Part shown: positions 47,983 through 64,000 of the stretch, one piece after another
Position numbering within the stretch: the stretch's first letter is position 1
Layout of the letters: every line of letters starts with the position of its first letter
Virus record (IMG/VR): IMGVR_UViG_3300031857_000057
Location: 39,519 to 103,518 of that record
Source: a virus
Length of the DNA stretch: 64,000 bases
Strand: one strand, 5' to 3'
Program-made: the position numbers and the translations under genes
The notes under the pieces: generated by a model
The model's database searches: none
What the model saw: only the letters and a program-made list of their open reading frames with translations
Told to the model about the DNA's origin: nothing

Positions 47983-48939
47983 TTATTTTATTGATTCTAA
48001 AAATCCTTGTGCTACATGTGCATGATTGTGTATTCCCATATGTTGTTTATCAGAAGCAAAATGCCACAAAATCTTATAATCATCTTTTATTTTAATATTA
48101 AATTGATCTAAACATATGTAATTGCATTTATGATCTTCTTTGTTTAAATCATCAAGACTACATGAAGATCCACAATTTTTAAATTTTTTAAAAGTAAAAA
48201 AATTGTCACGGTTTATACAAAATTCATCACTTGCAAAAAAAACTTCTTCAAATATTTTATCCGTAAGATTATTCCAAGTGCTCCAGACAAATTTTATATC
48301 TAAAAGTTTACACATGGTTGTTAGAATATATAGTGCATTTACATATTGTTTAATAGCTTCATGTGGAGGAATTATATCTTCTACGACGGCAGGAAATTTT
48401 ACTACTGAATCTTTTAGGTATAGCTCTCCAGTTTCAAAATCCATAGTTTTTAATTGTGAACTTGTAATATAAGTTACATCTTTTTTAGATAAAAAATGAT
48501 CTTTTTTGTTTTTATAAAAAATTCTATCTATCGTATGGAAATATCTCAAACAGTCTGGCATAAAAGCAAAAATATATTTTGGCTTACCGACAATATTTAA
48601 ATAACTTATTGCTGATGCGGCTATCTGTTCTGCAGAACCACCACAAATACCTAGGTTTGCCACCTTCATTCCAGTTGTTTTTTCAATAATTGATGACCAA
48701 ATATATTCTTCAGGTACTCCAACACCAAATGTTTGAGAACATCCTATTGCTAAAATATCACATGGAGATCCTTCAACTATATCTTTTAAATCTCTGTATC
48801 TATAATTATTTTGATGATAATCAATTTTTAACAATATGTCTTCTTTATCAAATTTAATATAGTTATGTATAAAATTTTTATTGTATAGTCCAAATGCAAA
48901 ACCAAGATGATCAAATATATTAGTAGACAAATGGTGCAT
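47983..48939 (-). CDS. SGNH-hydrolase-like protein
   Basis: IGCSQTFG, NLGICGGS, C-terminal DKQHMGIHNH. Confidence 0.6.
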   Translation of the reverse strand: MHHLSTNIFDHLGFAFGLYNKNFIHNYIKFDKEDILLKIDYHQNNYRYRDLKDIVEGSPCDILAIGCSQTFGVGVPEEYIWSSIIEKTTGMKVANLGICGGSAEQIAASAISYLNIVGKPKYIFAFMPDCLRYFHTIDRIFYKNKKDHFLSKKDVTYITSSQLKTMDFETGELYLKDSVVKFPAVVEDIIPPHEAIKQYVNALYILTTMCKLLDIKFVWSTWNNLTDKIFEEVFFASDEFCINRDNFFTFKKFKNCGSSCSLDDLNKEDHKCNYICLDQFNIKIKDDYKILWHFASDKQHMGIHNHAHVAQGFLESIK

Positions 48940-49029
48940 GCTTTATTTTTTTCTTTCTTTTAAAAATTTTTAATATTTTATATAAATAATATTGAATTTT
49001 TAATTTCATTTTTAAATTATACCATACAG

Positions 49030-49102
49030 TACCCCTAGTTGGATTTGAACCAACGCTTGGACGATTTTAAGTCGTCTGCCTCTACCGCTGGGCTATAGGG
49101 GC
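49030..49102 (-). tRNA. tRNA-Leu(UAA), short variable loop
   Basis: GCCCCTA acceptor; GACGA-CTTAAAA-TCGTC anticodon arm; 73 nt. Confidence 0.85.
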
Positions 49103-49106
49103 TCAG

Positions 49107-49179
49107 TGTCCCCACTTGGGTTTGAACCAAGGACCCGCAGATTAAAAGTCTGCTGCTCTACCAACTGAGCTATAGGGAC
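49107..49179 (-). tRNA. tRNA-Lys(UUU)
   Basis: GTCCCTA acceptor; anticodon loop CTTTTAA. Confidence 0.93.
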
Positions 49180-49181
49180 AG

Positions 49182-49255
49182 TAGAATGCTTTGGAATTGA
49201 ACCAAACTCCAAGATGCTTATAAGACACCTTCTGACCACCAGCCAGCCGCATTCC
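49182..49255 (-). tRNA. tRNA-Ile(UAU), atypical D-arm
   Basis: GGAATGC/GCATTCT acceptor; GGTGT-CTTATAA-GCATC anticodon arm; TTTGG-TTCAATT-CCAAA T-arm. Confidence 0.7.
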
Positions 49256-49260
49256 AAACG

Positions 49261-49334
49261 TGGAACAGGTAGGACTTGAACCTACGATGACCGAATTATG
49301 AGTTCGGGGCTTTAACCAACTAAGCTACTGTTCC
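49261..49334 (-). tRNA. tRNA-CAU (elongator Met or Ile2)
   Basis: GGAACAG acceptor; CCGAA-CTCATAA-TTCGG anticodon arm. Confidence 0.88.
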
Positions 49335-49341
49335 AGTTTAT

Positions 49342-49560
49342 TTATTTTATAACTTCGTTTAGCCCTCTAGCAATATCAGCAGACACCTGAAATGCTTTCT
49401 TAGTCTGCCTACTCTTTGCTTTACCATGTGTAGCCCAGACTTCATATGTATACTCAATATCAAGAGCAATCTGTTCTCTAATCTCTTTTACTGTAAATAC
49501 AATGAAATCCCACACCTGCTTTTTTTGTTCATCTGTTAATTCTTCTGTCCAATTACCCAT
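49342..49560 (-). CDS. Hypothetical protein
   Basis: 72 aa ORF. Confidence 0.5.
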   Translation of the reverse strand: MGNWTEELTDEQKKQVWDFIVFTVKEIREQIALDIEYTYEVWATHGKAKSRQTKKAFQVSADIARGLNEVIK

Positions 49561-49702
49561 TTTTATGCTCTTTCAAATGTCGGTTTAGTGTAAAGTACGC
49601 AAAGGAAGAGCGCACCTCAATTTCTTTATTACAGATATCACAAATTACCACCCGATTAGATGCCATGTATTAATTGTACCCTGCTAAACTTTTAAAGTCA
49701 AG

Positions 49703-50149
49703 TTATTCGCAGATATATGAAAATGACATATGAAATCTATCGGCCTGTGCTAAATTAAATGGAGTGTTATGATCCATTGGTTCATCTTTTGATGCACTAG
49801 CCATATCCCATACTGTAAAGGTTGTGCTAGATGGAACTAAGTGACCTTTAAGACTGTAGTGATCAGTACCCTGATTAGTAATATCATGCACCGATCCACC
49901 ATAAACATCTGTATGATATTTAGATGCAAACGGTATTGTTAAAGAATATGCTCCAGTACCAAAATTAGTAACACTTGTAAATACTACATCTATTTGAACA
50001 ATGACAAAGTTGCCAATCTTAATATAAGATCCAGTTGCAGGGTTGTTATTAAACGTAAGACCAGTACCAGACCAAACTGGGGAGTATGATTTAATCTCAG
50101 TAGTTAATCCACCAACATCTCCAAATGCGGGATGTGTAAACCGTGCCAT
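49703..50149 (-). CDS. Beta-rich protein resembling tail-fibre C-terminal domains
   Basis: GSYIKIGNFVIVQI...YSLTIPF pattern. Confidence 0.45.
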   Translation of the reverse strand: MARFTHPAFGDVGGLTTEIKSYSPVWSGTGLTFNNNPATGSYIKIGNFVIVQIDVVFTSVTNFGTGAYSLTIPFASKYHTDVYGGSVHDITNQGTDHYSLKGHLVPSSTTFTVWDMASASKDEPMDHNTPFNLAQADRFHMSFSYICE

Positions 50150-50424
50150 TATTTCTCCAGATTTATTTTAATTACTGCTGCCTGTAAGCCATCAGCAGAT
50201 CCCATGATAAATAGTTCATCAAAACCAGGTAGTTCAAAAGATATTGAATGATTAGGCAATATCCTAAATCCATAATCTGTTGTTGTGACGCTAGCGTTGC
50301 CAACATACACATACCCCGAAGAATTTATGTTTTGTATCGTAATGTCCATACCACTATGGGTAGTATTTGGAGTCAGGCGGGTAGCCTCAGAATCACTCAG
50401 TGTATAGATAGCATGTAATGTCAT
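50149..50424 (-). CDS. Small beta-sandwich protein, possibly virion-associated
   Basis: IQNINSSGYVYVG...GFRILP; leaderless start. Confidence 0.45.
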   Translation of the reverse strand: MTLHAIYTLSDSEATRLTPNTTHSGMDITIQNINSSGYVYVGNASVTTTDYGFRILPNHSISFELPGFDELFIMGSADGLQAAVIKINLEK

Positions 50425-50436
50425 AGTAAGATTATA

Positions 50437-51030
50437 TCATCTTATATATATTTGATTGAATTGATTGGTATATTGTGGCTCAGACATTGATAATCTAAAT
50501 CCAAAACCAGCAAGATATTCTTTGACATCTTGCTCTAACCATTGATCTTTCCAAAATCTTGCTGTCTCAACCTCAATACATATGCTGCCTATATTTGGAA
50601 GTATACTTGATGCCCCCGTGAGCACCTGACCATTTGCACCTTCGCAGTCAATCCATAAAGCTATATTTTTTTTATCTTCAAACAACTCGTTAAGAGTGGA
50701 TGATTTTACAGATATGTATTCTTTATTTCCCTTATCATTTCTTTTCATTATTGAATTATTAGATGTTAGTTTATGTTGATCAATCTGTATTTCAAAATCT
50801 ATCTCACCAGATACATCAGATATAGCTAAGTTTCTGTAGTCTACACCAGGAATATCTTTAAATTTTTCATACACAAATGGGCTAGCCTCAAATGCATAAA
50901 TTTCTTTCGCTATGCCAACCATTGACTTAGAAAAATCTGCATCATATGCACCCACTTCAATAGTAATTTTTGGCAGCATTACCTTTTGAATATCAATAAA
51001 TGCTGCAAGAATATCTTTGTCTGAGTGCAT
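50437..51030 (-). CDS. FkbM-family methyltransferase
   Basis: IEVGAYDA, AFEAS, LWIDCEGA..QVLTGA. Confidence 0.8.
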   Translation of the reverse strand: MHSDKDILAAFIDIQKVMLPKITIEVGAYDADFSKSMVGIAKEIYAFEASPFVYEKFKDIPGVDYRNLAISDVSGEIDFEIQIDQHKLTSNNSIMKRNDKGNKEYISVKSSTLNELFEDKKNIALWIDCEGANGQVLTGASSILPNIGSICIEVETARFWKDQWLEQDVKEYLAGFGFRLSMSEPQYTNQFNQIYIR

Positions 51031-51463
51031 TATTTTGATAGTATATAAAGTATGCCAGCTAAAAATGATGTAAGTATTACTGCAAAAATACTAAACAAAA
51101 CAAATTCAAACATCTCCATCTTCATCTTCCTCTAATCCAAAAGTAAGATCAAGATCGTTCTTAAAGTATTGGTATACTGCGCCAGCAATACCAAGAGCTC
51201 CAACCACTGCTGCTATAGCTTTAAATTTACTCATCATTCACCTCAAATTCTACAAAAGTTGTGCGGGTATCAGTAAGTATACTAGTTATTATTTGTTTCA
51301 TCATATCCCCATCACCAATGGGGTACTCTACGTCAAACTCTTTTTCGTTCATTTTATTCTCCATTCGGATAAGGATTTCCAGGCCAACAATAATAGCAGC
51401 CTTGCTTCCATGCCATATAGTTAACTGCTGCAAATATAATTAATAAAATAATAAATAATGGTT

Positions 51464-51664
51464 TCATAACTTCTTCTTTGGTTTTGGCATTCTTGCTTTA
51501 ATCATATCAATAAACATATCATAAAATTCTTCAGCATAATCATTATGCTTCATATATTCAAGAAAATAAATTAATTGTTCTCTTTCATGTGCAACAGCTT
51601 TTTGACAGCCGCTACATGGGCAAGCCCACTTACCACGCTTAGGAGTTTGATTTGGATCAGCCAC
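51464..51664 (-). CDS. Small Cys-containing hypothetical protein
   Basis: CPCSGC; leaderless GTG start. Confidence 0.5.
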   Translation of the reverse strand: MADPNQTPKRGKWACPCSGCQKAVAHEREQLIYFLEYMKHNDYAEEFYDMFIDMIKARMPKPKKKL

Positions 51665-51775
51665 GTAAACAGTATATCAAACAATGCCCAGATCGTCAAA
51701 GTTATCTATATGATCATCAATATCTCTACGCACAGGATAGATATCCTCAACTATTGACATAACACCATTATACAA

Positions 51776-51870
51776 TAAGAAGGACCGCCAAGACAGAAAG
51801 GGATCTCGGCGGTCCAAGCGCTCCCCAGAAAGGGTAAGGAGCGTAAAGAGGGGATTTTCATCAACCCTCT
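51776..51870 (-). ncRNA. Candidate small RNA with three hairpins; two loops carry anti-Shine-Dalgarno-like CCCUUUCU
   Basis: Own consensus promoter; no annotated ORF; G-U pairs form only on the minus strand; last hairpin has 12 bp followed by UUCUUAUU. Confidence 0.7.
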
Positions 51871-51876
51871 ATGTAT

Positions 51877-51906
51877 ATTATAGCAAAGTTATTTGGGCTT
51901 TGTCAA
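51877..51906 (-). promoter_or_regulatory. Consensus housekeeping-sigma promoter for the candidate sRNA
   Basis: TTGACA-18 nt-TATAAT with extended -10 TG. Confidence 0.8.
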
Positions 51907-52204
51907 GCTTTAAAGCTCGGCGCTAATAGGAAATAATAAACCACCCTACGCAACTCCGTTGCGCTATAGGTTAATATTTTTATAATGCTGCATACACAAA
52001 TACCACTTAACTCCCCTGTTATCTATCTTGGAAGTATATGATATTTGATTACAAAAAGAACAAGTCATTAGCTCACAAAGCTAACTGAGAAATGTTTTTT
52101 GCAAACATCAGCAATAACAAAATTTTCTCTATCAATTACAACATCATGATAAAGAGCGTCTTGATCACAGTAAAAGCATTTTTCCATATCTATATGATAG
52201 CATA

Positions 52205-52780
52205 TTAGATATTCCAGTTATTGGTCTGATTCTTATTCTCAAACAAATAATCTAGATTTGTGGGGGTAATGCCAAGATATTCAATAAGCCTGCTTGCATC
52301 CTGCTGCTCATAAAGCTCTTCAAATGTAATCTGAAAAATATCAAGGTTACGAATGTATGCCTTTTGAGTTGCTGCATGTGTCTTGTAAGATGAGAGAAGA
52401 TCGGCATTTTGATTAATGACCATGTTATCTACTTCGGCTGTATCTGCAGATCCTCTGTAATCATTTGCAAGATGTGCAACTAGTCTGCTATAAGCGCAAG
52501 CGTCATCATCTTCTCTTGTTAATCCTATTACTTTGTCAAACTTTGACATAAGCCAATCTACAGATTCAATTGCATTGACCTGAAGAAACATATTATCAAC
52601 AAACTTAAGGATAAGACCTCTATCTGAGTTAACCCATTCTAACTGTGCTGCCAACTGCTCTTCTGTGTTAGCATGTGGGTTAAAGGGTTCCAACATAACT
52701 TCTTCGCCTGTTTCAGATTTGAGCCAAGCAGAAAGACTTGTTGAACCTGAACGGCTTTGCGCCAAAACTAATATTCTCAT
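52205..52780 (-). CDS. Sulfotransferase-like P-loop protein
   Basis: AQSRSGSTSL (PAPS-binding-like), EPFN, ITFEEL. Confidence 0.6.
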   Translation of the reverse strand: MRILVLAQSRSGSTSLSAWLKSETGEEVMLEPFNPHANTEEQLAAQLEWVNSDRGLILKFVDNMFLQVNAIESVDWLMSKFDKVIGLTREDDDACAYSRLVAHLANDYRGSADTAEVDNMVINQNADLLSSYKTHAATQKAYIRNLDIFQITFEELYEQQDASRLIEYLGITPTNLDYLFENKNQTNNWNI

Positions 52781-52968
52781 AAAACCGCCTCTGGATGATC
52801 TAGTGGTGTTGGCGCAGTAAGAAGGCACTGGCAATCAGCACATTGAGCATCGTCTAATAGATATGATATTAATTCATAGCTGTTGGGATCAAACTGAGCG
52901 GTAATGCGGATAAGCGATGAGCCACAGCATGGACACGCAGCAGTTGGGATTCCTCTAGAATTAAACAT
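52777..52968 (-). CDS. Zinc-ribbon protein
   Basis: CPCCG...CADC; leaderless start. Confidence 0.55.
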   Translation of the reverse strand: MFNSRGIPTAACPCCGSSLIRITAQFDPNSYELISYLLDDAQCADCQCLLTAPTPLDHPEAVL

Positions 52969-53023
52969 ATCCCTATTATATAACAATTTGCTACATCCTG
53001 CAAACCTATGATAGACTATCGTA

Positions 53024-53212
53024 ATGTTTATTAGCAATTGCCCAAAGTGTCGCACAAAGCTCGTACCTATTTTGTATGGTAAGTTAGATTATATTCATCT
53101 TGATCTACACGAGCAAGGTCGTGCATTTTTGGGGGGTATGAATAAGAAACCTTATAACTCCTATTGTCCCCTATGTGAAGAATCCTATAAGGAAGAAACT
53201 AATCTACCCTAA
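53024..53212 (+). CDS. Zinc-ribbon protein
   Basis: CPKC...VPILYG...CPLC; leaderless start. Confidence 0.55.
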   Translation: MFISNCPKCRTKLVPILYGKLDYIHLDLHEQGRAFLGGMNKKPYNSYCPLCEESYKEETNLP

Positions 53213-53344
53213 TATGGTCTTGGCAAACAGGATAAATCTTATATCCATCTGATTCTACGGTTATTGATGGTTTTGAACATACTTGACATTTTTCAAACAA
53301 CTGTTTATTATCTTTACGAATTTTTGCGAGGTATTCGTAATAAG

Positions 53345-53557
53345 CTACATTCTCTTCCATTGCCCTATACGTCCTAGATTCACACGTTGTAATAACATAC
53401 TAGCAAAAGATGGATGTTTTTCCTTATTGCCCAAGAAAACCTTGCCATTTTCTAGGTCTGTTATTTCCCATTTCTCTGGTACTTTTGTCCATATGATAAG
53501 GGCTATGGGCTCGTCTAATTCTTCAACTTCCCTGCCATCTTTGAGTTTTCTCTTCAT
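53345..53557 (-). CDS. Hypothetical protein
   Basis: TKVPEKW..TDLE.G; -10 element 7 nt before ATG. Confidence 0.5.
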   Translation of the reverse strand: MKRKLKDGREVEELDEPIALIIWTKVPEKWEITDLENGKVFLGNKEKHPSFASMLLQRVNLGRIGQWKRM

Positions 53558-53590
53558 CAAAACCATTATACAGCATTGTAAATGATGGAG

Positions 53591-53622
53591 TTTTCCACAA
53601 GTTATGCACAGGTTTATCCACA
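53591..53622 (+). promoter_or_regulatory. Three tandem DnaA-box-like 9-mers
   Basis: TTTTCCACA, TTATGCACA, TTATCCACA. Confidence 0.65.
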
Positions 53623-53658
53623 GATAAATGTTACTGATATTTTTATGATGTATTATTT

Positions 53659-53684
53659 GTGGAGGAAAGTGGAGAGAAGTGGAG
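53659..53684 (+). promoter_or_regulatory. MraZ-type binding repeat
   Basis: GTGGAG x3 with 4-nt spacers. Confidence 0.55.
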
Positions 53685-53792
53685 AATGAAGCATCTTAGA
53701 CAGGCGGCTTCGTAATGTCCAAACCTTATACCACAAACATCCTATATTGTCAAACCTTTATATCCCCAAATATGCCATATAAAACCATATAA

Positions 53793-53868
53793 AAATGTTT
53801 GAAAACATATGAGAAATATAACAAAATGTTATAAAACAATATAGAAATGTTTGAAAATGTTTGAAAAC
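53793..53868. repeat. AT-rich direct repeats
   Basis: AAATGTTTGAAAA three times (two overlapping) plus a variant. Confidence 0.6.
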
Positions 53869-54064
53869 TTTCAGGGATTTTTTAGAGGTCGTTCGTAATG
53901 TCTTTTATACTAGAAGGGCCAGAGGATCTTCTTAATCCCCCGCCAAATTCGGCCAAATAATCTTTCTGCCTTTTGTTCAAACCTATATTCCTTGCTTTGT
54001 TTATACTCGTGTGATTGGAAGTATGGATTGTTTTGAGATTGGAAGAAATAGTTTCTAGGTGACA

Positions 54065-54337
54065 TTATTTTTCCCCCGCTTTTTCGGCGGTAGCTAACAT
54101 ATGATCAAGATTATTAAACCCTGTATCCTCTATACCCAATGTAGCCAATAGCATAGCAAAGGTTTCTTGGACATATATGAGAGCTATTTCTGTTGGTTGA
54201 CATAATCCCTCTGCCGTCAAAAATGCGAGGGGTAGTCCAATATCATTAAACTCTATAAATTCCCTAGTATTAGAATCATCCTTATAATTAAGATAGAAGC
54301 TAGCTAGGATATCAAATTGTTTGTCAATATCGGTCAT
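54065..54337 (-). CDS. Hypothetical protein
   Basis: FIEFNDIGLPLA motif; -10 element 7 nt before ATG. Confidence 0.55.
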   Translation of the reverse strand: MTDIDKQFDILASFYLNYKDDSNTREFIEFNDIGLPLAFLTAEGLCQPTEIALIYVQETFAMLLATLGIEDTGFNNLDHMLATAEKAGEK

Positions 54338-54516
54338 ACATAAAAGTATATCACTGTTTGACAAATATTAAAAAGTTTGATAAACTTCTGGGATTTTTTT
54401 ATGATCGTTCGTAATAACATTTTGGGAAATTTTTCTTAATGTCGTAAATGTCCGATTTGTATGGTTTGACCTCGGGGGCTTTCACGGCACCCCTGCGGGG
54501 GCACCGTGATTTATAA

Positions 54517-54750
54517 CTAGAACAAACGCTCTTGCTGATAATACTTATTGCGTTCGTTATACTCAGCAACTTCTTTGTTGTATTGGCTAGCCTCCAAAAC
54601 TTCTACTGCTCTCACATAAATAGTATGCGGTAATGCGTGAGCAATATATTTTCCTACCTGCTCTAAATCTAAATGAAAGTCAGATAGTAGTTTGCCAATA
54701 CTTTTTGCTACCCTCTCTTCTTGGCTTGTTGGTAGTCGTAGTCGTCTCAT
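54517..54750 (-). CDS. Hypothetical protein
   Basis: GGAGG RBS before ATG 54750. Confidence 0.55.
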   Translation of the reverse strand: MRRLRLPTSQEERVAKSIGKLLSDFHLDLEQVGKYIAHALPHTIYVRAVEVLEASQYNKEVAEYNERNKYYQQERLF

Positions 54751-54774
54751 AGCCCTCCAGTCTATCAAATAAGT

Positions 54775-54815
54775 GAGGGGAGCGCAAGCGAAAGGATGAC
54801 CTGCGCTCTACCCTC
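54775..54815 (-). other. Intergenic hairpin with UCCUUUCG loop
   Basis: GAGGG(TA)GAGCGCAGG-TCATCCTTTCG-CTTGCGCTCCCCTC. Confidence 0.6.
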
Positions 54816-54834
54816 GTGCCTAGGGTCACCACTC

Positions 54835-55203
54835 CTAGGCTTTCGTTAGAAACCTTTCCTTTGCTAGATGATATGTAATAAACTCATCTATTGAATGCGT
54901 TCCAGTATCATCTTCAACAGTCTTATTTACTAAATCAATGATAACTGGGTGGTCCATGAAACCTAAATCATTAGGATTGCATGCATAGATTCCATATCCC
55001 GTCGCTGACATTAGTTCATCTTGAAGAAAGTAACTGATTGCCATACGTGTCCCATATGCTACATCTGGCATATCAATACGTGGCTTAGCATGTTGCAATG
55101 CCCCAGCCAAATCAACATACATGGAGTCTTCGCCCCAATGACTATAAAGCGCTACAGCCTGCTCCTCTGACTGTTTGAATACAAATGTACAACGTGCTCC
55201 CAT
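54835..55203 (-). CDS. Hypothetical early-type protein
   Basis: MGAR...LYSHWG motif. Confidence 0.6.
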   Translation of the reverse strand: MGARCTFVFKQSEEQAVALYSHWGEDSMYVDLAGALQHAKPRIDMPDVAYGTRMAISYFLQDELMSATGYGIYACNPNDLGFMDHPVIIDLVNKTVEDDTGTHSIDEFITYHLAKERFLTKA

Positions 55204-55343
55204 GGTTATTCTTCCTCTCTGTTAGTTTGTTTCATGTTATCAAAATCCAGCGGTAGTGTCAACTGCTCCCACATTATTCTTCCCCCTCAATCCCGCATTT
55301 GGGACAGTATGAATCATATACATGATCACAATAGTCATCCATT

Positions 55344-55640
55344 CTATGCCCTTTCCCCTGGAGTTCTAAAAGCCTTGGGAGATTCTTCACCTATAGCAAA
55401 AGAGAGCCCATATGCAAGCGTATAGAGGGCCTGGATAGCGTCACACTGTCCTTCCCAATACCTTCGCTCCATGGAGTCCATTGCTTCTCCAGAACGCTCC
55501 TCTTCTTCCTGTGCTAGGATTAGTTCTTCCTCCGCCTCCACAAGCATGCGGTTCATCTCACCATGGAGAATATGCAAACCAGACAAACCTGCGTCCACAG
55601 CCTTTTGAACATGGTCATCTAACTCTGTTGCGATAATCAT
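55344..55640 (-). CDS. Hypothetical protein
   Basis: AMDSMERRYWEG motif. Confidence 0.5.
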   Translation of the reverse strand: MIIATELDDHVQKAVDAGLSGLHILHGEMNRMLVEAEEELILAQEEEERSGEAMDSMERRYWEGQCDAIQALYTLAYGLSFAIGEESPKAFRTPGERA

Positions 55641-56081
55641 GATTCCCTTCCATTGTATTTGATATCACTATATACTGCTAGCAAATGTGCAGCGGTAGAC
55701 CAAGCAGCCTCCAGTTGCCTATAAGGAACAATATCCTCAGACTCTAACTTCTGCATGTCTTGTTCCAAACTAAGCATATGTAGTTTGACATATTCCATGT
55801 ATTGGTCAGACATTATAATCCTCTAATGGGATTACTTCATCGTTGATGAGTTGTGAGCCTGTTGATACAACAATCTCGCCGTCAATCTCGCCAAAGATAG
55901 CATTAGGGAATATAGGTAGCACCTGCGCTACCATTTCATCAAAGGTCATCTTCATCCTCCTGTGGCTCTGTTGTTAGTTCTCCGTCATTGGTTTCATACC
56001 ACCCTGTGTAGAAGATTATCTGTCCGTCATTATCATACTCATAGTCATACTTAGCCATGAGTTTCTTTAGTTCTGCTTTGG

Positions 56082-56813: not shown

Positions 56814-57157
56814 TAGTTATCTTCTCCAATAATGTTCCAGACAACATCTACATTGTCTGCCATATAAGGCAGGGTATTGTCTAAGAGACTAGACACAGAG
56901 GCATTTACATCCTCGTCATCAGTAGAGTAGCAAATAGTGACTATTACATCCATGTTATATCCTTTCTGTTTGATATTCCAAGTATCGCATATTTGGTGGT
57001 ATTTGGCAAGGTATAGGAGTGTGACTTACCCCACATTAGATATGTCCACACCCACAGTTACAGCAGGTATTACATTTACCCTCGTAAGTATTACACATTA
57101 GATCTATAAGGTCTTCTTCAAGACAGTTATAACAAATAAACTCATCAAGCTGTAGCA

Positions 57158-57313
57158 TTAGATATGCCCCTCTGCTAACAAACCTTCTAATAGGTCCTTG
57201 GCTCTAAAAGTATTATTATATAACCATGGGTCATCATCTGAGTTGATAGTCGTAAGCACAGAATCAAGAGCATCAATCATATCTCTTACATCTGTTTCTA
57301 TATATCCTAGCAT
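57158..57313 (-). CDS. Small hypothetical protein
   Basis: ACAGAAAGGGA RBS before ATG 57313. Confidence 0.55.
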   Translation of the reverse strand: MLGYIETDVRDMIDALDSVLTTINSDDDPWLYNNTFRAKDLLEGLLAEGHI

Positions 57314-57417
57314 TATTTCCCTTTCTGTGAGATATTTTATTATCCCATATTTGGGGGAAAAAAGCAAGGTCAACGTAATAAAGATTTGGGAAAAATCTAA
57401 TCTAGTACGTAATGAGC

Positions 57418-57433
57418 TGTGACAAAAATCACA
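57418..57433. promoter_or_regulatory. CRP/GlxR-type site
   Basis: TGTGA-CAAAAA-TCACA. Confidence 0.7.
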
Positions 57434-57463
57434 CGACTCGGGGCCCCATGATCGCATGAAAAA

Positions 57464-57492
57464 GTGAGCAGTTTATACTCTTGCTCAGGAGT
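57464..57492 (-). ncRNA. 3'-UTR H-type pseudoknot, copy 1
   Basis: ACTC-C-TGAGCA-A-GAGT-ATAAAC-TGCTCA. Confidence 0.75.
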
Positions 57493-57502
57493 TGCGATTT
57501 AC

Positions 57503-58519
57503 TTATGCAATCGCTAGCACATTCTGCACTGTTTGCAATATGCGATTCTTTTCTGCAGTGATAGAAGCATCAAAACCAGAAGCAGCAGCAAGGACGGATT
57601 CATTACTACCACCACGAGCAGAACGATGCCAATCTAATCTTTCGGTTAGAGCATTCATTGCACCCCATGCGGTGTTAGCAATCATCCCGTTATATTCACC
57701 TGTGTAAATATCATTGATGAGGTCAATCTTATTTTGCCACTTAGTGAGAGCGATTTTCTTCTCATCTTCTGGCTTAGGATAAATCGCAAGCACAATGTCG
57801 TTGAACTGTTGCGCTGTGATTTCTTTCTCAATCATGGTCTTAGCCATGAGATCAAAAGCATCCATGTATTTATTAGCAAGACCAAGAGTCTCACGAGCAA
57901 TCTGCACACGACCATTAGCAGATTGTGTGTGACGAATCTTGAATGATTGCTTGATTGCATTCTTGCCACGCTTACTACCCAATGCAAGATTGAGAGTGTT
58001 AGCGCATACAACACGCACTGGCGTGATAGATGCTTGAATAGCAATAGAGCCATCATGTGATGTGTTGATGAGAAGATAAGTCTTGACCTTATCCGAAACA
58101 CCGCTAGGGTCTAGCACTGTCTCACGCTCAAGAGCAAGAGAGCCAAATACTACACGACCACCCTTGATTGAGCCAGCGGTCTCCCATCTACCGCCACCAT
58201 CTAGAATGTTATCGCCAAATGCGAATAGGTCTTCATTCTGCAATGGAACATATCGCTCACCTACAACACCCAAAACATCTGTCTGGTTATTGTTAGTAGG
58301 ATTAGTTCTTACAACATATTGATAAGACTTATCTGATGTAAGGGTGTTAGGAATCTCAACATCTACAAGACGAACATTCCAGTTATTTAGGTTAGCAGCA
58401 GCCAACATTTCTGCGGTGTTCTTTTCTTCTGTAAATACTGTTCCTAAACCATGCCATGCAGGTTCACGGAAAGATGCAAAAGATGCAACACCGTTTTGAG
58501 TTTCTAGTTCATGAGCCAT
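57503..58519 (-). CDS. DUF932-family phage/plasmid protein
   Basis: PAWHGLG, LGVVGERY.PLQN, ETAGSI.GG, NTSHDGS, TPVRVVCANTL, IRHT. Confidence 0.85.
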   Translation of the reverse strand: MAHELETQNGVASFASFREPAWHGLGTVFTEEKNTAEMLAAANLNNWNVRLVDVEIPNTLTSDKSYQYVVRTNPTNNNQTDVLGVVGERYVPLQNEDLFAFGDNILDGGGRWETAGSIKGGRVVFGSLALERETVLDPSGVSDKVKTYLLINTSHDGSIAIQASITPVRVVCANTLNLALGSKRGKNAIKQSFKIRHTQSANGRVQIARETLGLANKYMDAFDLMAKTMIEKEITAQQFNDIVLAIYPKPEDEKKIALTKWQNKIDLINDIYTGEYNGMIANTAWGAMNALTERLDWHRSARGGSNESVLAAASGFDASITAEKNRILQTVQNVLAIA

Positions 58520-58547
58520 TTTATTACCTTTCTGTTAGTTATAGCAA

Positions 58548-58575
58548 TCTTAGCACACAAAATCTGGGAATACAA
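58548..58575 (-). promoter_or_regulatory. Leftward housekeeping-type promoter, representative of the early cassettes
   Basis: TTGTAT-17 nt-TAAGAT with TG extension; similar elements near 56981, 57340, 59424, 60210, 60499, 61374. Confidence 0.65.
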
Positions 58576-58675
58576 ATCGTAAATCGTAAATCGGACATAT
58601 AGGACAAATCGCCCCCGAGTTAATTAGCGGGGGCCCCAGGACACCACCACAGATCCCAGGGCCCAAGATTATTTG

Positions 58676-59134
58676 TTACTCCCATTCCTCCATATCTATG
58701 TCATCAACATAGTGAGAGTTGATAACGGTATCGCCATGGTAAATGTCTACCGTCAAATCATCATTCAAGAAATAACGCAAATCAAATGAATCAACTTCAT
58801 TCAGCGGTACCTCAGTGCTGCCTTCAACTTTGATTGTTGCAACCCAGTTGAGAGTTGTTTTTGCTTCATAGCCAATAATCTCGCAAAGTTGACTAAGAAC
58901 GTCTTCTTTTGAGGTATCAGAGTTATACCAGCCATCTGCAGTTAGATTGTCTTGAATCTGTGCTAACTTTTTTTCAGCGGCTGCTAGGAATGACTCAGTA
59001 AACTGCTTCTTACGAAACATCTCATTGATGTCATGCTTAGTAAGCATATGGTGCACAATCTCTCCAGTAGGTTTTTGCTCCAAGCCCTCCACGAGATAGT
59101 TGACGTACAGTGTTGTTAGTTGTGTGTCTTGCAT
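58676..59134 (-). CDS. Hypothetical protein
   Basis: 152 aa; GAAAGGA RBS. Confidence 0.55.
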   Translation of the reverse strand: MQDTQLTTLYVNYLVEGLEQKPTGEIVHHMLTKHDINEMFRKKQFTESFLAAAEKKLAQIQDNLTADGWYNSDTSKEDVLSQLCEIIGYEAKTTLNWVATIKVEGSTEVPLNEVDSFDLRYFLNDDLTVDIYHGDTVINSHYVDDIDMEEWE

Positions 59135-59397
59135 TATTCCATTTCCTTTCCAAGTTCATCAAACTCTCTAACCTCATCAAGCATAGCGTCAAACTGTTCC
59201 TCAGTCAATAATACTGATGTAACAAGATGTGCTGTTAGTGCTGTTAGATGTGTTGAGTAAACAAACATTTCTCTCATCATTTCTTCTTCAGAAAGAATAT
59301 TCTTATTCTCTAATATGTATTTGACTGCGCTTACTACATCTGGTGAATGTAATGCTTCCTTGCTTGCTTCTGCTATTGCTAACGCTGTTGCGCTCAT
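59134..59397 (-). CDS. Hypothetical protein
   Basis: ACAGAAAGGA RBS before ATG 59397. Confidence 0.55.
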   Translation of the reverse strand: MSATALAIAEASKEALHSPDVVSAVKYILENKNILSEEEMMREMFVYSTHLTALTAHLVTSVLLTEEQFDAMLDEVREFDELGKEME

Positions 59398-59472
59398 TGG
59401 TGGTTTCCTTTCTGTATATACCAAGTTTAGCACTAATCTGGGAAAAATACAACTTATCCCGTAAAGCCCCCG

Positions 59473-59488
59473 TGTGAGAAGGATCACA
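59473..59488. promoter_or_regulatory. CRP/GlxR-type site
   Basis: TGTGA-GAAGGA-TCACA. Confidence 0.7.
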
Positions 59489-59515
59489 AGAGCTCGGGCC
59501 CCATTTGGCGGGGAA

Positions 59516-59544
59516 GTGAGCAGTTTATAGTCATGCTCAGGACT
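59516..59544 (-). ncRNA. 3'-UTR H-type pseudoknot, copy 2
   Basis: AGTC-C-TGAGCA-T-GACT-ATAAAC-TGCTCA. Confidence 0.75.
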
Positions 59545-59551
59545 TTTAGTT

Positions 59552-59719
59552 TTAGTAAGTTTTTACCATAGCGAAACGCTTTGCGCCGTTGCTAAGTGTT
59601 AGACCTACACGAGTTACATTTCTACGGATAGGTGTGAAAGAGTTGATTCTTCCAGTTACTCCCACTTTGCTAGTAGTGAAGAGATCTCCTACCTGATATG
59701 TGTATCCTCCTAGAGTCAT
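59552..59719 (-). CDS. Small beta-barrel-like protein (not in the ORF track)
   Basis: 55 aa, MTLGGYTYQVGDLFTTSKSGVTGRI...; ACAGAAAGGA RBS; paralog of 60289-60459. Confidence 0.65.
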   Translation of the reverse strand: MTLGGYTYQVGDLFTTSKVGVTGRINSFTPIRRNVTRVGLTLSNGAKRFAMVKTY

Positions 59720-59749
59720 TTGCTTTTCCTTTCTGTTAGGTGTTTTGTT

Positions 59750-59783
59750 GTGGGCAGTTTTACCTTAGGTGATACCCAGCACC
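59750..59783 (-). ncRNA. 3'-UTR H-type pseudoknot, copy 3
   Basis: GGTG-C-TGGGTA-T-CACC-TAAGGTAAAAC-TGCCCA. Confidence 0.7.
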
Positions 59784-59792
59784 AAATCTCGT

Positions 59793-60179
59793 TTAGAGAT
59801 AACGAGCGATAGCGTTATATGTAGATGTGGAAACTGTTTCCTCATCCGTCATTTTGAGAATACGAATAGCGTTCTCAAGTTCCTCTACCATCTCGTTATA
59901 TGAGTGGCGGTGGATTTGCTCATGCTCACGCTCAGGTTGCTCTGGAAAATCAAGCCCATTGAGGTCTAAGTCAAAATCAACATTGAGATTATTATTCCAA
60001 GCACGATAACTTGTGCGAAGATTTTTAGCCTTAGCGATTTGTGATACGGCTAACTTAGCAACTTCCTTTTCCCACTTTTCAGTAGCCTTCTTATACTTAG
60101 CCTCGTTCTCATCTTGCTTAGCATAGTCAGCCTTGATTTGTGCCAACTTAGTTTCTAAGGCTTTGATAACCTTAGCCAT
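59793..60179 (-). CDS. Helical hypothetical protein
   Basis: 128 aa; ACAGAAAGGGA RBS. Confidence 0.6.
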   Translation of the reverse strand: MAKVIKALETKLAQIKADYAKQDENEAKYKKATEKWEKEVAKLAVSQIAKAKNLRTSYRAWNNNLNVDFDLDLNGLDFPEQPEREHEQIHRHSYNEMVEELENAIRILKMTDEETVSTSTYNAIARYL

Positions 60180-60240
60180 TTGTTTTTCCCTTTCTGTTTG
60201 GTGGTATAAATCTTAGCATTTTGCCAAGATAAAATCAAGT

Positions 60241-60271
60241 TGAGCAGTTTATCCTCCACTTGCTCAGGTGG
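60241..60271 (-). ncRNA. 3'-UTR H-type pseudoknot, copy 4
   Basis: CCAC-C-TGAGCA-A-GTGG-AGGATAAAC-TGCTCA. Confidence 0.75.
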
Positions 60272-60288
60272 CGTTAGCGTTTGCTAAA

Positions 60289-60459
60289 CTAGTTAGACTT
60301 GTTCTTCCAAGTAGTCCAACGAACCTTACCCTCAACATCCAACTTCACACGAACTGTGTTCTTGTCTGTTGGGATGATTTCCTTGATGATACCTGTGACC
60401 TTGCTCTTTTGAGAGGTGTAGGTATCGCCTACCTTGTAGGTTGCTACTGATACTGCCAT
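60289..60459 (-). CDS. Small beta-barrel-like protein
   Basis: TYKVGDTYTSQKSKVTGII; AAGGAG RBS. Confidence 0.6.
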   Translation of the reverse strand: MAVSVATYKVGDTYTSQKSKVTGIIKEIIPTDKNTVRVKLDVEGKVRWTTWKNKSN

Positions 60460-60636
60460 TTTTCTTTCTCCTTTGTTTGTTGTTGTTGCCATAGTATTAT
60501 TATCGCATTATTCATTTGTGTCCGTCAAGTTATTTCTGATATTTCTCATATTTTGAGATTATTCACTTGTTGTCCCCCAAGCCCAATAGCATGAGGAATA
60601 TTAGACCTAGGATTACTACTTCTAGCATAGCCCCCC

Positions 60637-61350
60637 TTATTTCTTCTTTGCGCTAAACACTATATCAGATTTTTGGTAAACGCACAAGCCACACGATACG
60701 CAAGCAGATCCCTTTTCTGATATGAGAGGAATAGCTTTCTTATTCTCAGGACACTTAGCCCCTACCCTGCCAATCATCTCTTTCATGTCTGCCTGCCCTA
60801 TTGCGAAAGTGTCAGCAAGGTATGCCAATCTTATTTCTTTGCTAGCGAGGGTAACGGCAATGTCTTTGTTATCTTGATCTGTTGAGAAGTATAAGGATAA
60901 GTTATCAATACCCTTGAGGATATTAGCTGCAGAAGCTACACGTGTATATACCCAAAATTGAATGTCAGGCTGTTCTTCAATAACTAAACGCCATGCACGT
61001 GCATATTCATCACTAAAGAAGTCACCGTCCCAATGAATGCGGAATAACATTTTAGCATTACGCTTTACACAATCTTTCTTGAATTCTGCAATCATATCTG
61101 AAAGTAGAGAATACATGCCTTGAATATCTTCATCTTTCAATAGATTCCAGTTATGCATTAGAACATCCCTAACGCCTTTGTAGATTTTTTCTAGCTTACC
61201 CGCATAACATACTTTGGCGCATGTAGGTGTCTGTCCAGGACATGAATATTCTTTTCCTGCGGGTAGACCGAAAGTGTTAGCAATAGTAGGTGTCTTGCCA
61301 TTAGGTGAAACGGCATTAGTAACTTTTCTGTCCATAGATCTTTTTAGCAT
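60637..61350 (-). CDS. GP88-like Fe-S / radical-SAM-like protein
   Basis: SCPGQTPTCAKVCYA, FRIHWDGDFF, WVYTR, C-terminal CPE...CVSCGLC. Confidence 0.7.
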   Translation of the reverse strand: MLKRSMDRKVTNAVSPNGKTPTIANTFGLPAGKEYSCPGQTPTCAKVCYAGKLEKIYKGVRDVLMHNWNLLKDEDIQGMYSLLSDMIAEFKKDCVKRNAKMLFRIHWDGDFFSDEYARAWRLVIEEQPDIQFWVYTRVASAANILKGIDNLSLYFSTDQDNKDIAVTLASKEIRLAYLADTFAIGQADMKEMIGRVGAKCPENKKAIPLISEKGSACVSCGLCVYQKSDIVFSAKKK

Positions 61351-61476
61351 GGTGTCCCTTTCTGAATAAACCAAGCTTAGCAGATTCGGGAAAAAATATC
61401 AACTTGCCGTAAATAGGTGTTTCTACGTAAAGGGGGCAAAACGGACAAAACGGCTCGGGGCCCCTTTGGGGAGCTT

Positions 61477-61704
61477 TTACTCTACATATACATAGAGTTC
61501 AACTTGCTCATCATCAAAGAAGAATGTTTCAATAACTTCTTCATATTCATCAAGCATAGCGACATTACACCCTTCATCGCCTTCATTGATACTCTTGATA
61601 GTGAAGAATTCACCTTCAACCTTGATTAGATCGCCCTCCATCAATTGATTAGGATAGAGGAGATCTGCAAAGCGTGTTTCCATGTCGTTTATTGTAGCAG
61701 TCAT
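61477..61704 (-). CDS. Small acidic hypothetical protein
   Basis: GAGG RBS; coupled to the upstream gene. Confidence 0.5.
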   Translation of the reverse strand: MTATINDMETRFADLLYPNQLMEGDLIKVEGEFFTIKSINEGDEGCNVAMLDEYEEVIETFFFDDEQVELYVYVE

Positions 61705-61910
61705 TTTATAACTACCTCGCCATTCGCATAGAAAGTCTTAGTGAACATTTTACCTGTTGGGTCTGTTAGATTATATCTAGCATATACCTTCGCATTTCCA
61801 TAGTCCTTACACTTAGCCCAAGCATCATGAGCCTCCATGAAGTCATGAAGTCTAAGTGTTGATACAAGTTCATCGTCATACCAAGTTGTTAGTGCGTATG
61901 CGTATTCCAT
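61701..61910 (-). CDS. Hypothetical protein
   Basis: GAGG RBS; in operon. Confidence 0.5.
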   Translation of the reverse strand: MEYAYALTTWYDDELVSTLRLHDFMEAHDAWAKCKDYGNAKVYARYNLTDPTGKMFTKTFYANGEVVIK

Positions 61911-62210
61911 TTAGATTTCCTCTCTCTCAATAATCCAAGCCTCTAGGCGGTGGTTCTCAATAATAGCATGAGCAGGGGCAGTATTCTGGTATTTGTAGAA
62001 CACGCCTTCTGGTAGTGGAATCTCCAAGTTCCAAAGCCCTGCGTCATTGACGGCATCAATAGCCTCAATACATGGCTGAATCATGATAGTGGGGACGGGA
62101 GGGTATAGATTAGAAGTCAGGTGAATCCTCATCTGTGTTTCCATATCTAGCATGATACCCAAGTCAGAAAGTGTCCCATCTGCCATTTCATTTGCTAAGT
62201 TGCTTCCCAT
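61911..62210 (-). CDS. Hypothetical protein
   Basis: HLTSNLYPPVP...HRLEAW; GAGG RBS. Confidence 0.55.
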   Translation of the reverse strand: MGSNLANEMADGTLSDLGIMLDMETQMRIHLTSNLYPPVPTIMIQPCIEAIDAVNDAGLWNLEIPLPEGVFYKYQNTAPAHAIIENHRLEAWIIEREEI

Positions 62211-62222
62211 TTTATTTCCTCT

Positions 62223-62411
62223 CTATCGTGCTTCTGGTGTTGTGAATAGTTGTCCTGCGGTAACAGGCTCTAACAATGAATCAAGCAAGTATAACTCATG
62301 CTCCTCATATTTCTCAAATCCTGCCTCGCATGAGCAATACTCAATAGCATACTCATCATCAAACAGGTAGAACACCTCTCCTGAATCTGAACAGATAATA
62401 CAGTTGGTCAT
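62223..62411 (-). CDS. Small zinc-binding protein
   Basis: CIIC...CSC; GAAAGGA RBS. Confidence 0.5.
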   Translation of the reverse strand: MTNCIICSDSGEVFYLFDDEYAIEYCSCEAGFEKYEEHELYLLDSLLEPVTAGQLFTTPEAR

Positions 62412-62528
62412 AGTTTTCCTTTCGTCCAATAAGACAAACCTATCACAGCCCTACGACAATATCAAAACGACACGCCGAATTTTGGGAAAAGTTTCGGGAA
62501 AGCCGTAAAGTGTAACGTAAATCACAGC

Positions 62529-62549
62529 TGTGGATAAACCTGTGGAAAA
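62529..62549 (-). promoter_or_regulatory. Two DnaA-box-like 9-mers
   Basis: TGTGGATAA and TGTGGAAAA on the + strand. Confidence 0.6.
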
Positions 62550-62704
62550 CGCCTCGGGCGCAGTCGGGCGTGTCTAATCCCAGTTAGTTTGTTTTCCTAC
62601 ATTTTTCTTTTCAATTTTTTCGGCGGTATGGATCGCTAACAACTCTGTCAAACTATAAGCAAGAATGAAAAGAGTTGCTAGCGTCGCTATTTGGCTAATC
62701 CACA

Positions 62705-62896
62705 TTATGCGTCAATGAGTCCTAACTCATCTACACCACAACGCTTTTCAAACTTTGCTTTATCAAAGTTTTCATTATCGCCATGAAAGTATTCTGCGAA
62801 CATGTCTACAATATCCTCAAACACTTGCGGATGAATCTCCTGCGAGAATGATTTTAGAATGTCTGCGGTTTTTATGTAGTCTTTTCTAGTCATCAC
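62705..62896 (-). CDS. Small hypothetical protein
   Basis: MTRKDY...DNENFD..KF. Confidence 0.55.
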   Translation of the reverse strand: MMTRKDYIKTADILKSFSQEIHPQVFEDIVDMFAEYFHGDNENFDKAKFEKRCGVDELGLIDA

Positions 62897-63096
62897 TACT
62901 TTACCACCCTAAGAATAGCCCATGAGCCGTTTTCGTTGATTTCGTCTAGTGTTGGTTGGAGTCTAGGAACTACCAAGTCGTGAAGCATAGAAACTAGAAT
63001 GTGATTTATTTGCTCTTCTGAATAGCGTGAGATTATAGTCTCCGCATATTCTCCGATAAACTCAGTTTCAAACTCTAGTGAGTGTCTGATTTTCAT
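62896..63096 (-). CDS. Small hypothetical protein
   Basis: AGAAAAGGA RBS. Confidence 0.5.
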   Translation of the reverse strand: MKIRHSLEFETEFIGEYAETIISRYSEEQINHILVSMLHDLVVPRLQPTLDEINENGSWAILRVVK

Positions 63097-63208
63097 TTGC
63101 TGTCCTTTTCTGTTGGGTTATTTATTGTAGCGGTTAGGGCTGTCAGGGCTTGCGCCATAGATTCTTTTCGTTGTGCCGTTACATATTGGCGGAATTCATC
63201 AAGATTCA

Positions 63209-63376
63209 TTAGTCTGCCTCTATTTCTGTAACTTTGATTAGGTTGATTCCCAAAGCGGGATTCTGTAGAGAGTTTCCAATGTGAATCATTAGATTCTCAT
63301 AGTTTTCTTCATGTGATAGAAACTCGTCAAAGTCTGCCTCAATGTGAAACTCTGCGGTTAGTGTATAAGTAGGCAT
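63209..63376 (-). CDS. Small hypothetical protein
   Basis: AGAAAGGG RBS before MPTYTL. Confidence 0.5.
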   Translation of the reverse strand: MPTYTLTAEFHIEADFDEFLSHEENYENLMIHIGNSLQNPALGINLIKVTEIEAD

Positions 63377-63444
63377 TTTAGCCCCTTTCTTTAGGTTATG
63401 TAGCAAGTCTAGCGGATTTAGTTATTTATAGCAAGCCTAAGCCC

Positions 63445-63460
63445 TGTGAGGTTTATCACA
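63445..63460. promoter_or_regulatory. CRP/GlxR-type site
   Basis: TGTGA-GGTTTA-TCACA. Confidence 0.65.
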
Positions 63461-63696
63461 AGGGCACTTAGGATTAGTCTTAGCAAAGTGGCGAATAAGC
63501 ACCCTTCGCTCAAAGTTAGTTAGTCCAAATACTGAACGGATACCCCCGTCATTATATTCGTGGATAAGTATGTCTAGCCTTTTTTCAGTGAGCATTTTTT
63601 GCCCCTTTCTTTTCTGTTACTCTGTAAGTATCTCACACACTCAGAAAAATATCAAATCCAAAATGCGATCAAAACGGACATTTTGAAAAAAAGTTT

Positions 63697-63712
63697 TGTG
63701 AGAAAACTCACA
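63697..63712. promoter_or_regulatory. CRP/GlxR-type site
   Basis: TGTGA-GAAAAC-TCACA. Confidence 0.7.
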
Positions 63713-63800
63713 TCGTACGTAAACCGACAAAACGGACATTTCGCCCTCGGGCGCTTTCGGCGCATTGTCAAATCAACACGCCGATTTTTTTATTTATTTT

Positions 63801-63989
63801 TTATGGATATTTTCTTTCATCTTCTGTGATTAGGAAATCAAGGTAATCAAGAAATCCTTGCTCATAGGCTATTGGATCAACTGCTTTCAGAACATCAGAC
63901 GGGGAATAAAGAAGATTCCCAATCACTATCTGCTCATTCGTTTCATCTAACATCTGGTCATACAGCGGAAGAAGTAAATCTTCATTCAT
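63801..63989 (-). CDS. Small acidic hypothetical protein
   Basis: GAGG RBS; YDQMLDE...LKAVDPIAY. Confidence 0.55.
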   Translation of the reverse strand: MNEDLLLPLYDQMLDETNEQIVIGNLLYSPSDVLKAVDPIAYEQGFLDYLDFLITEDERKYP

Positions 63990-64000
63990 CGCTTTACCTC

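Follow-up and report, generated by a model that had tools for sequence, protein, structure and literature searches.

Phage T4 inactivates its early mRNAs through their ribosome-binding sites by means of the RegB endoribonuclease and the RegA repressor, which aids the switch to later expression. In elements of the put type of phage HK022, two hairpins form in the nascent transcript just after the early promoter and are followed by terminators and by genes that are transcribed from the same promoter. To our knowledge, few regulatory RNAs are known from lytic phages. In actinobacteria, the 6C small RNA pairs through C-rich loops with G-rich ribosome sites and represses its targets without a chaperone (PMC6486639), and RNAIII and the Rsa RNAs of Staphylococcus aureus (RsaE/RoxS and others) carry UCCC motifs in their loops (PMC2790875, PMC2837412). 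The c4 antisense RNA of phages P1 and P7 blocks translation of a phage mRNA through loops that pair around the ribosome-binding site of that mRNA (reviewed in PMC12197685), and the ToxI mimic of phage PhiTE is a phage RNA that copies a host RNA to defeat abortive infection (PMC3475682). Since 6C/B11, the RNAIII/Rsa RNAs and c4 are alike in kind to the RNA proposed here, described equivalents do exist, of which a first-pass annotation of the locus had known none. In a limited literature search, we found descriptions neither of regulatory RNAs from actinophages nor of this particular RNA family.

The RNA element lies in the window, by which we mean the whole 64-kb stretch of DNA that was analyzed, namely the final 64 kb of a 103.5-kb virus record of IMG/VR with ~35% G+C. 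The features of the locus are listed in Table 1. The minus-strand promoter, which the first-pass annotation had described as a consensus TTGACA-18-TATAAT, is a perfect 12/12 match and the sole one in the 16 kb scanned (positions 48000-64000). Transcription would start at about position 51870 of the minus strand. The RNA from 51872 to 51772 folds into three hairpins with -46.9 kcal/mol (z = -6.7), and none of 200 shuffled sequences was as stable, in agreement with the three hairpins in ~95 nt that had been noticed before. The plus strand of the element gives a weaker fold of -41.1 kcal/mol, which fits the earlier argument from G-U pairs in favor of the minus strand. In the minimum free energy structure, hairpin 2 gains two extra U-G pairs and one A-U pair. 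Loops 2 and 3 have the motif CCCUUUCUG in common, with copies at 51834-51826 and 51802-51794, respectively. Hairpin 3 together with TTCTTATTGT is the strongest terminator-like site in the 16 kb scanned, and the 3' end of the RNA would fall within this T-rich tract. Judged by its sequence, the element has the promoter, the terminator and the noncoding character of an independent transcription unit, and a free-standing structured RNA gene of ~95 nt with its own promoter and terminator is supported.

Table 1. Features of the RNA locus, the genes that follow it and the leftward early array (window coordinates).
Feature	Position	Strand	Description
Promoter	51877..51906	-	TTGACA 51906-51901, 18-nt spacer with TG, TATAAT 51882-51877
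Hairpin 1	51847..51870	-	AGAGGG...CCCCUCU at the putative 5' end
Hairpin 2	51819..51843	-	Core stem CGCUCC/GGAGCG, loop UUACCCUUUCUGG
Hairpin 3 (terminator stem)	51782..51815	-	GGACCGCCGAGA/UCUUGGCGGUCC, 12-13 bp, G+C-rich, loop UCCCUUUCUG
T-rich tract	51772..51781	-	TTCTTATTGT, after hairpin 3; overlaps the extended -10 of the next gene; putative RNA 3' end
Next transcription unit	51677..51772	-	TATAAT 51772-51767, 6 nt, ATG 51760; leaderless 27-aa ORF MSIVEDIYPVRRDIDDHID...
Second downstream gene	GTG 51664	-	TTGACG-17-TATACT, 6 nt, leaderless
Leftward early array	56953..63612	-	Ribosome-binding sites (A)CAGAAAGG(G/A/U) or AAGAAAGGGG at 11 starts
Early-array starts	56953, 57313, 58519, 59134, 59397, 59719, 60179, 61350, 62411, 63376, 63595	-	
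Ribosome-binding site	57319..57327	-	CAGAAAGGG; 51-aa early gene, ATG 57313; 11 nt complementary to loop 3
Ribosome-binding site	60188..60196	-	CAGAAAGGG; 128-aa early gene, ATG 60179; 11 nt complementary to loop 3
Ribosome-binding site	61356..61364	-	CAGAAAGGG; GP88-family early gene, ATG 61350; 10 nt complementary

IMG/VR was first scanned for two copies of CCCTTTCTG spaced 10-40 nt apart, a pattern in which the loop sequence is forced. Besides noise, which made up most of the matches, a recurrent architecture was found in ~26 contigs. In its main layout, a strong promoter is followed by a 5' hairpin that varies, by two short hairpins with the loop UCCCUUUCUG and by a conserved 3' module of the form xxxC-CUGAGCAU-Gxxx-AUAAACUGCUC. 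A second layout (L011, L092, L097) combines a single loop hairpin with the 3' module and a CCCUUUCUG tail, and a third (L007/L084) has two hairpins, the second of which is a long terminator. The window and its relative L337 share this third layout, placed behind a further 5' hairpin. Among the IMG/VR contigs that belong to related phages, the RNA family is represented by ~20 sequence variants, and a promoter within 0-2 mismatches of TTGACA-17/18-TATAAT precedes ~20 distinct variants. Hairpin 1 differs in length and sequence among the members. Its 5' arm, AGAAGG or AGAGGG in the window (51847-51870) and most family members, resembles a Shine-Dalgarno sequence and pairs with CCCUUCU or CCUUUCU, so that the RNA holds an internal copy of the loop-target duplex proposed below.

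In an alignment of 15 distinct variants (A2), 96% of the cells are paired and 11 pairs show changes on both sides; none of 500 shuffles was as good, and slid controls were 40-50% paired. Pairing reaches 100% in both loop hairpins, where 9 of 12 pairs have changed on both sides; in the helix equivalent to hairpin 2, pairing is also 100%, 4 of the 6 pairs show double changes, and the loop does not vary. The covariation-supported structure displays a conserved single-stranded seed, the loops being invariant except for C or A at the first position. When a covariance model was trained on these sequences with the window left out, it recovered the window element at E = 3e-4. In L337, the closest relative, with an early protein that is 98% identical, the same terminator hairpin as in the window is found with two compensatory changes in the stem (A-U to G-C and G-C to A-U) and, additionally, one C-G to U-G change, while the loop is kept. 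Conserved gene order also argues for the homology of the window element to the family: the ORF MSIVEDIYPVRRDIDDHID... after the window element is homologous to the ORF after the RNA in L092, and its homologue is the second ORF after the RNA in many other members. Fixed loops and covarying stems in homologues had been named in advance as a check, and alignment A2, the twin-hairpin scan described below and L337 all agree with it. A search of the whole window against Rfam 15 at gathering thresholds returned tRNAs only, and with the limit relaxed to E = 5, the window region and seven family loci showed no match on the element, 6C included. The comparative data thus establish, at the level of sequence, a real structured RNA gene family that is not in Rfam.

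In L337 (9500-9620), there are three CCCTTTCT copies, the middle one of which is partly buried in a stem, so that even near-identical phages differ in how many loops the RNA displays. The match counts of model R1 were rejected as counts of the RNA, as the matches outside the RNA are mostly to a separate 3' pseudoknot-like module (41 related records). This 3' module, xxxC-CUGAGCA(U/A)-Gxxx-(N)AUAAACUGCUC with a T-rich tract after it, is repeated on the minus strand of the window (57453-57561, 59505-59570, 60229-60295) and occurs also in L196, L197, L199, L203, L205, L211 and L212. The module directly follows the stop codons of early genes, and most family RNAs end in it, although the window's copy of the RNA does not. 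Its stem 1 is different in every copy and always paired, GAGCA/UGCUC covarying to GGGCA/UGCCC, which fits an H-type pseudoknot or a special terminator; Rfam gave no match to the module.

The constraint on the loops was assessed in a loop-blind test on 80 loci, with the conserved DUF932 early gene as anchor. Neighboring hairpins were accepted as a pair if their loops had 6 nt or more in common, whatever the sequence. The sole recurrent long motif in this twin-hairpin scan was CCCTTTCT, found at 10 loci and in the window, with ACCTTTCT (L342) and CCTTTCT (L358) as single variants. By direct count, the RNA is present in 16 of the 80 loci, all of them in a sub-clade that shares at least 82% identity with the window in the DUF932 protein. 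A pattern of one motif plus the 3' module added L423, with AACCUUUCUG as second loop, and L429. The tally of loop variants across the scans gives CCUUUCUG, preceded by C or, less often, A, as the fixed core of the loops, which in the sequences compared are under strong constraint.

Several other candidate signals were set aside. The RDIDDHID peptide was rejected as an unbiased anchor, as it mostly matched an unrelated phage group of higher GC; the search yielded one new member, L289/L342, with ACC loops. An association between the loops and the bases that flank AGAAAGG, C in front of it and G behind it (Fisher p = 4e-4 and 0.018, respectively), was discounted as co-evolution because the RNA-free clade keeps ACAGAAAG too and the samples are phylogenetically clustered. 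As ACAG also precedes the site in the clade without twin-loop RNA in its sampled flanks (ACAGAAAGAGG), it cannot be put down to pairing with the loop G. Conservation of the ACAGAAAG part extends across clades whether or not the RNA is present, which suggests that it has a separate role, for example as a translational enhancer. In L408 and L386, two DUF932-anchored loci of the clade without twin-loop RNA in the sampled flanks, the early genes use ACAGAAAGAGG, ACAGAAAGAAGG or ACAGAAAAGG. CCTTTCT hairpins that precede pseudoknot modules after protein genes in other contigs were few enough for chance, since the search pattern forced the motif. In L352 (9800-9880), a long hairpin with the loop UUCCCUUUCUUU, followed by a pseudoknot-like module, lies directly upstream of the DUF932 gene, a position that differs from the usual RNA locus. 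The strict pattern of the main layout was absent from 185,579 species-representative bacterial and archaeal genomes, a loose twin-motif pattern gave only tandem repeats among the matches listed for these genomes, and a DNA search of GenBank phages with the window element and a main-type member gave no match.

WhiB proteins are a marker of actinobacteria and their phages. The window contains a WhiB-family gene on the plus strand (32719-32892; Pfam PF02467, 40.5 bits, above the cut-off), and the DnaE and DUF932 proteins of the phage are nearest to those of Streptomyces BE-cluster phages, with wider match lists made up mostly of actinophages. These affinities point to an actinobacterium as the probable host, in support of the first-pass annotation. 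The 16S rRNA of actinobacteria has the 3' end ...CCUCCUUUCU, which was assumed here because of this probable host. Streptomyces phage NootNoot, which DnaE and DUF932 single out as the nearest cultured relative, has GGAG-type sites at its early genes, and no CCUUUCU twin hairpins were seen by eye in the 1.3-kb unannotated gap after its early array. This gap, 1.28 kb without annotated genes at the end of the leftward early array (119.9-121.2 kb; L550 11900-13200), starts with TTGACA-17-TAACAT and a long-range GUGUCCCUGGGG...CCCCAGGGAC stem and may hold a different noncoding RNA in the equivalent position.

In a host whose 16S tail ends in CCUUUCU, AGAAAGG is a Shine-Dalgarno sequence of the usual kind. 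In the window, CCTTTCT on the plus strand at 56961, 57320, 58527, 59407, 59728, 60189, 61357, 63384 and 63604 lies in all nine cases 4-9 nt upstream of the ATG of a leftward ORF, and the coordinates given earlier for these ribosome-binding sites were right to within 1-2 nt. CAGAAAGGG was observed five times in the window vs 0.33 times expected, with two copies in the element and three at ribosome-binding sites. The plus-strand genes of the window have AAGGAG or GGAGG sites, and the AAGGAG sites that had been noted at 4897, 9747 and 20186 were confirmed, as were the remaining positions and sequences of the first-pass annotation. The number of sites that match the loops follows from the resemblance of the loops to the 16S tail, hence it does not count as separate evidence of targeting. 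The majority of the early sites have AGAAAGGA, which permits 8-nt pairing with a UCC tail and leaves a mismatch to the CCC or ACC loops; the loops match these sites one base less well than a UCC tail would, and full loop matches account for only about a third of the early sites. The seed is complementary to translation start regions, though the target is of a generic Shine-Dalgarno type. Three related long genomes use AGAAAGG-type sites and lack the twin-loop RNA in the stretches examined, which indicates that the type of ribosome-binding site does not depend on the RNA.

At the family loci that include the upstream flank, the same-strand upstream genes use GAAAGG-type sites, with up to 16 per locus and ACAGAAAGG as the commonest form. 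An early array with complementary ribosome-binding sites, pointed out in the first-pass annotation for the window, thus stands beside the RNA at each of these loci. Genes downstream of the RNA seldom use GAAAGG-type sites. In nearly all members, the gene directly after the RNA starts 6 nt past the -10 hexamer (TATAAT-N6-ATG), a spacing that implies a leaderless start. The leaderless starts proposed earlier were found in the window for the two genes right after the element (51760 and 51664).

The usual first gene after the RNA is a leaderless MHLH(R/Q/G)Y...C..CGWER(I/L)V gene of ~31-43 aa, zinc-ribbon-like in sequence, which directly follows the RNA in L023, L027, L040, L067 and L007 and is missing from the window. 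A tiny RDIDDHID ORF of 27-30 aa is present after the RNA in many members (window 51677-51760; L092, L027, L038, L105 and others). The RDIDDHID motif also opens a small ORF after a conserved gene in L214-L318, a large, unrelated group of viral contigs with higher GC.

Pairing was evaluated by simple duplex energies, for the loops and, as a comparison, for the assumed 16S tail. The loops of the RNA reach -12 to -18 kcal/mol on early AGAAAGG-type start regions and -4 to -8 kcal/mol on AAGGAG/GGAGG start regions, while the 16S tail reaches -8 to -12 kcal/mol on both. The loops are thus predicted to outbid the 16S tail at the early sites and to be weaker than the tail at AAGGAG/GGAGG sites, and the selectivity for AGAAAGG sites that had been postulated is reproduced in these predicted energies. 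Opening would cost 2-7 kcal/mol for the loops and 1-6 kcal/mol for the targets, and a 9-nt duplex in a loop of 9-13 nt is sterically limited; the duplex energies overstate binding. The loops are a near-copy of the 16S tail; the copy is not exact, with CCC or ACC before UUUCU where the tail has UCC.

We propose that the element may specify a trans-acting small RNA that blocks the ribosome site of the early gene class, a reading to which we give about an even chance of being correct. Host RNA polymerase would transcribe the ~95-nt RNA of a lytic actinobacterial phage from the consensus promoter and stop at hairpin 3. The RNA would show (C/A)CCUUUCUG, nearly the actinobacterial 16S 3' end (...CCUUUCU), twice in hairpin loops, as the exact complement of the (C)AGAAAGG(G) site that the adjoining upstream early genes use. 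With accumulation of the stable RNA, early phage mRNAs, and perhaps also host mRNAs with the same site, would be bound by the loops at these sites. The RNA would then compete with the 30S subunit and translation of early mRNAs would fall, whereas AAGGAG/GGAGG-led genes and the downstream leaderless genes would be spared. The host-type consensus promoter implies that the RNA would be made alongside its proposed targets, and the timing of an early shut-off by the RNA is conjecture. This model fits all comparative tests run, and the mechanism appears plausible. A wider role, in which the RNA would mask AGAAAGG-class sites on phage early and host mRNAs and so move ribosomes to leaderless and AAGGAG/GGAGG-led phage genes, is possible but doubtful.

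Other explanations of the locus were considered. The region might encode a small protein and the hairpins be incidental, as a 37-aa ORF with TTG/ATG starts (51751-51864) spans the element in the window. When 20 family members were compared, no conserved ORF was found across the element: start codons and frames differ between members, 6 of the 20 lack an ORF of at least 15 aa, the two motif copies stand in different reading frames within one molecule, and substitutions keep base pairs, not codons. At the comparative level this refutes a small protein, which we regard as scarcely credible. Quite unlikely, too, is a cis-acting transcription element, be it an insulator or terminator block between the arrays or a polymerase-modifying nascent RNA like that of HK022 put. 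Such an element would account for the location exactly at the boundary of two differently organised gene arrays in all members, for the 3' end, which is a terminator or, in most relatives, the pseudoknot-like module also found after early genes, and for the -10 of the next promoter abutting the T tract. However, a terminator or insulator needs neither its own consensus promoter nor invariant loops, and in ordinary terminators the loop drifts, whereas in this family it is the stems that change and the loops that stay as they are. The downstream genes, moreover, carry their own -10 for leaderless starts, and read-through transcripts would lack the ribosome site.

Another candidate is a decoy or sponge that mimics the 16S tail, or offers a pyrimidine-rich loop, and titrates a protein without mRNA pairing; the protein could be an RNA-binding protein of the phage, a host ribonuclease toxin that cuts the anti-Shine-Dalgarno region, or an enzyme that processes the 16S 3' end. 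As is textbook knowledge, actinobacterial 16S rRNA has in its last 7 nt the sequence of the loop core, CCUUUCU, and two to three copies per molecule behind a very strong promoter would suit a stoichiometric decoy. The base before CCUUUCU, moreover, is C or A and not the U that would pair best with the common AGAAAGGA sites. A precedent exists in the ToxI mimic of phage PhiTE (PMC3475682). We nevertheless consider a decoy unlikely, since it comes without a candidate binding protein, the conserved G after UUUCU goes beyond the end of the 16S tail, the RNA is confined to one sub-clade and its placement between an AGAAAGG-led and a leaderless array is left unexplained. A positive or protective regulator, whose loops would pair with the same ribosome sites or with other G-rich sites but activate by stabilising mRNAs or freeing a sequestered site, or an RNA directed at host mRNAs only, would draw on the same complementarity as the main model, and co-expression with the early genes from a host-type promoter suits a helper no less than a shut-off. 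However, initiation is as a rule blocked when a Shine-Dalgarno sequence is covered by pairing, as is generally known and as seen with 6C (PMC6486639), which makes this option very unlikely.

Because the loops are strongly constrained, the family needs an explanation even if blocking of the early ribosome site should fail as its mechanism. The RNA family offers a concrete target, namely a ribosome site common to an entire early array that lies beside an array of leaderless genes. If the blocking of this site in trans is true, the RNA would be a simple RNA-based switch for early shut-off, a natural tool for class-specific translational control in Actinobacteria and a handle on how phages use the split between leadered and leaderless genes in actinobacterial hosts. 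If, beyond this, the RNA were to reprogram translation, it would do as an RNA what RegB/RegA do in T4, and it would be the first case of a virus that sorts mRNAs by initiation mode through a look-alike of the 16S tail.

Compared with the systems described so far, the phage RNA would share its functional logic with RegB and RegA of T4, although the T4 agents are proteins and the agent proposed here is a base-pairing RNA. With regard to HK022 put, the locus shows two hairpins after a strong promoter, a unit that ends in a strong terminator, next genes with their own leaderless-type -10, and no Rfam match. It falls outside the Rfam 15 families 6C, RsaE and c4 antisense RNA. With 6C/B11, it shares the small size and the probable host phylum; 6C consists of two hairpins with conserved C-rich binding loops and represses several mRNAs at G-rich ribosome sites, a pairing that is also predicted for the phage RNA. 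However, 6C is chromosomal in high-GC Gram-positives and has loops with at least six cytosines, whereas the phage RNA has CCCUUUCUG loops, with three to four C followed by UUUCUG, that match the extreme 16S tail, and its proposed targets are the phage's own early gene class. With too few loop cytosines and no Rfam match at E up to 5, the RNA was not assigned to 6C. In RNAIII and the Rsa RNAs, several hairpins likewise repeat one C-rich, Shine-Dalgarno-complementary loop, and many targets are regulated by loop pairing; in contrast to the phage RNA, they are chromosomal RNAs of Firmicutes without a sequence or model match to it, and their motif has 4 nt vs 8-9 nt here. The c4 RNA is, like the actinophage RNA, a phage-encoded small RNA with loop pairing at ribosome-binding sites, which in the actinophage RNA is predicted. 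While c4 stems from temperate enterobacterial phages, arises by processing of a precursor and controls a single operon (ant) in immunity, the actinophage RNA has its own promoter and terminator, belongs to a lytic-type phage and would address a site common to ~10 genes. The kind of mechanism proposed is thus a known one, and what is new is the setting: a lytic actinophage, twin loops that resemble the 16S tail, and a site common to a whole early array that adjoins a leaderless array.
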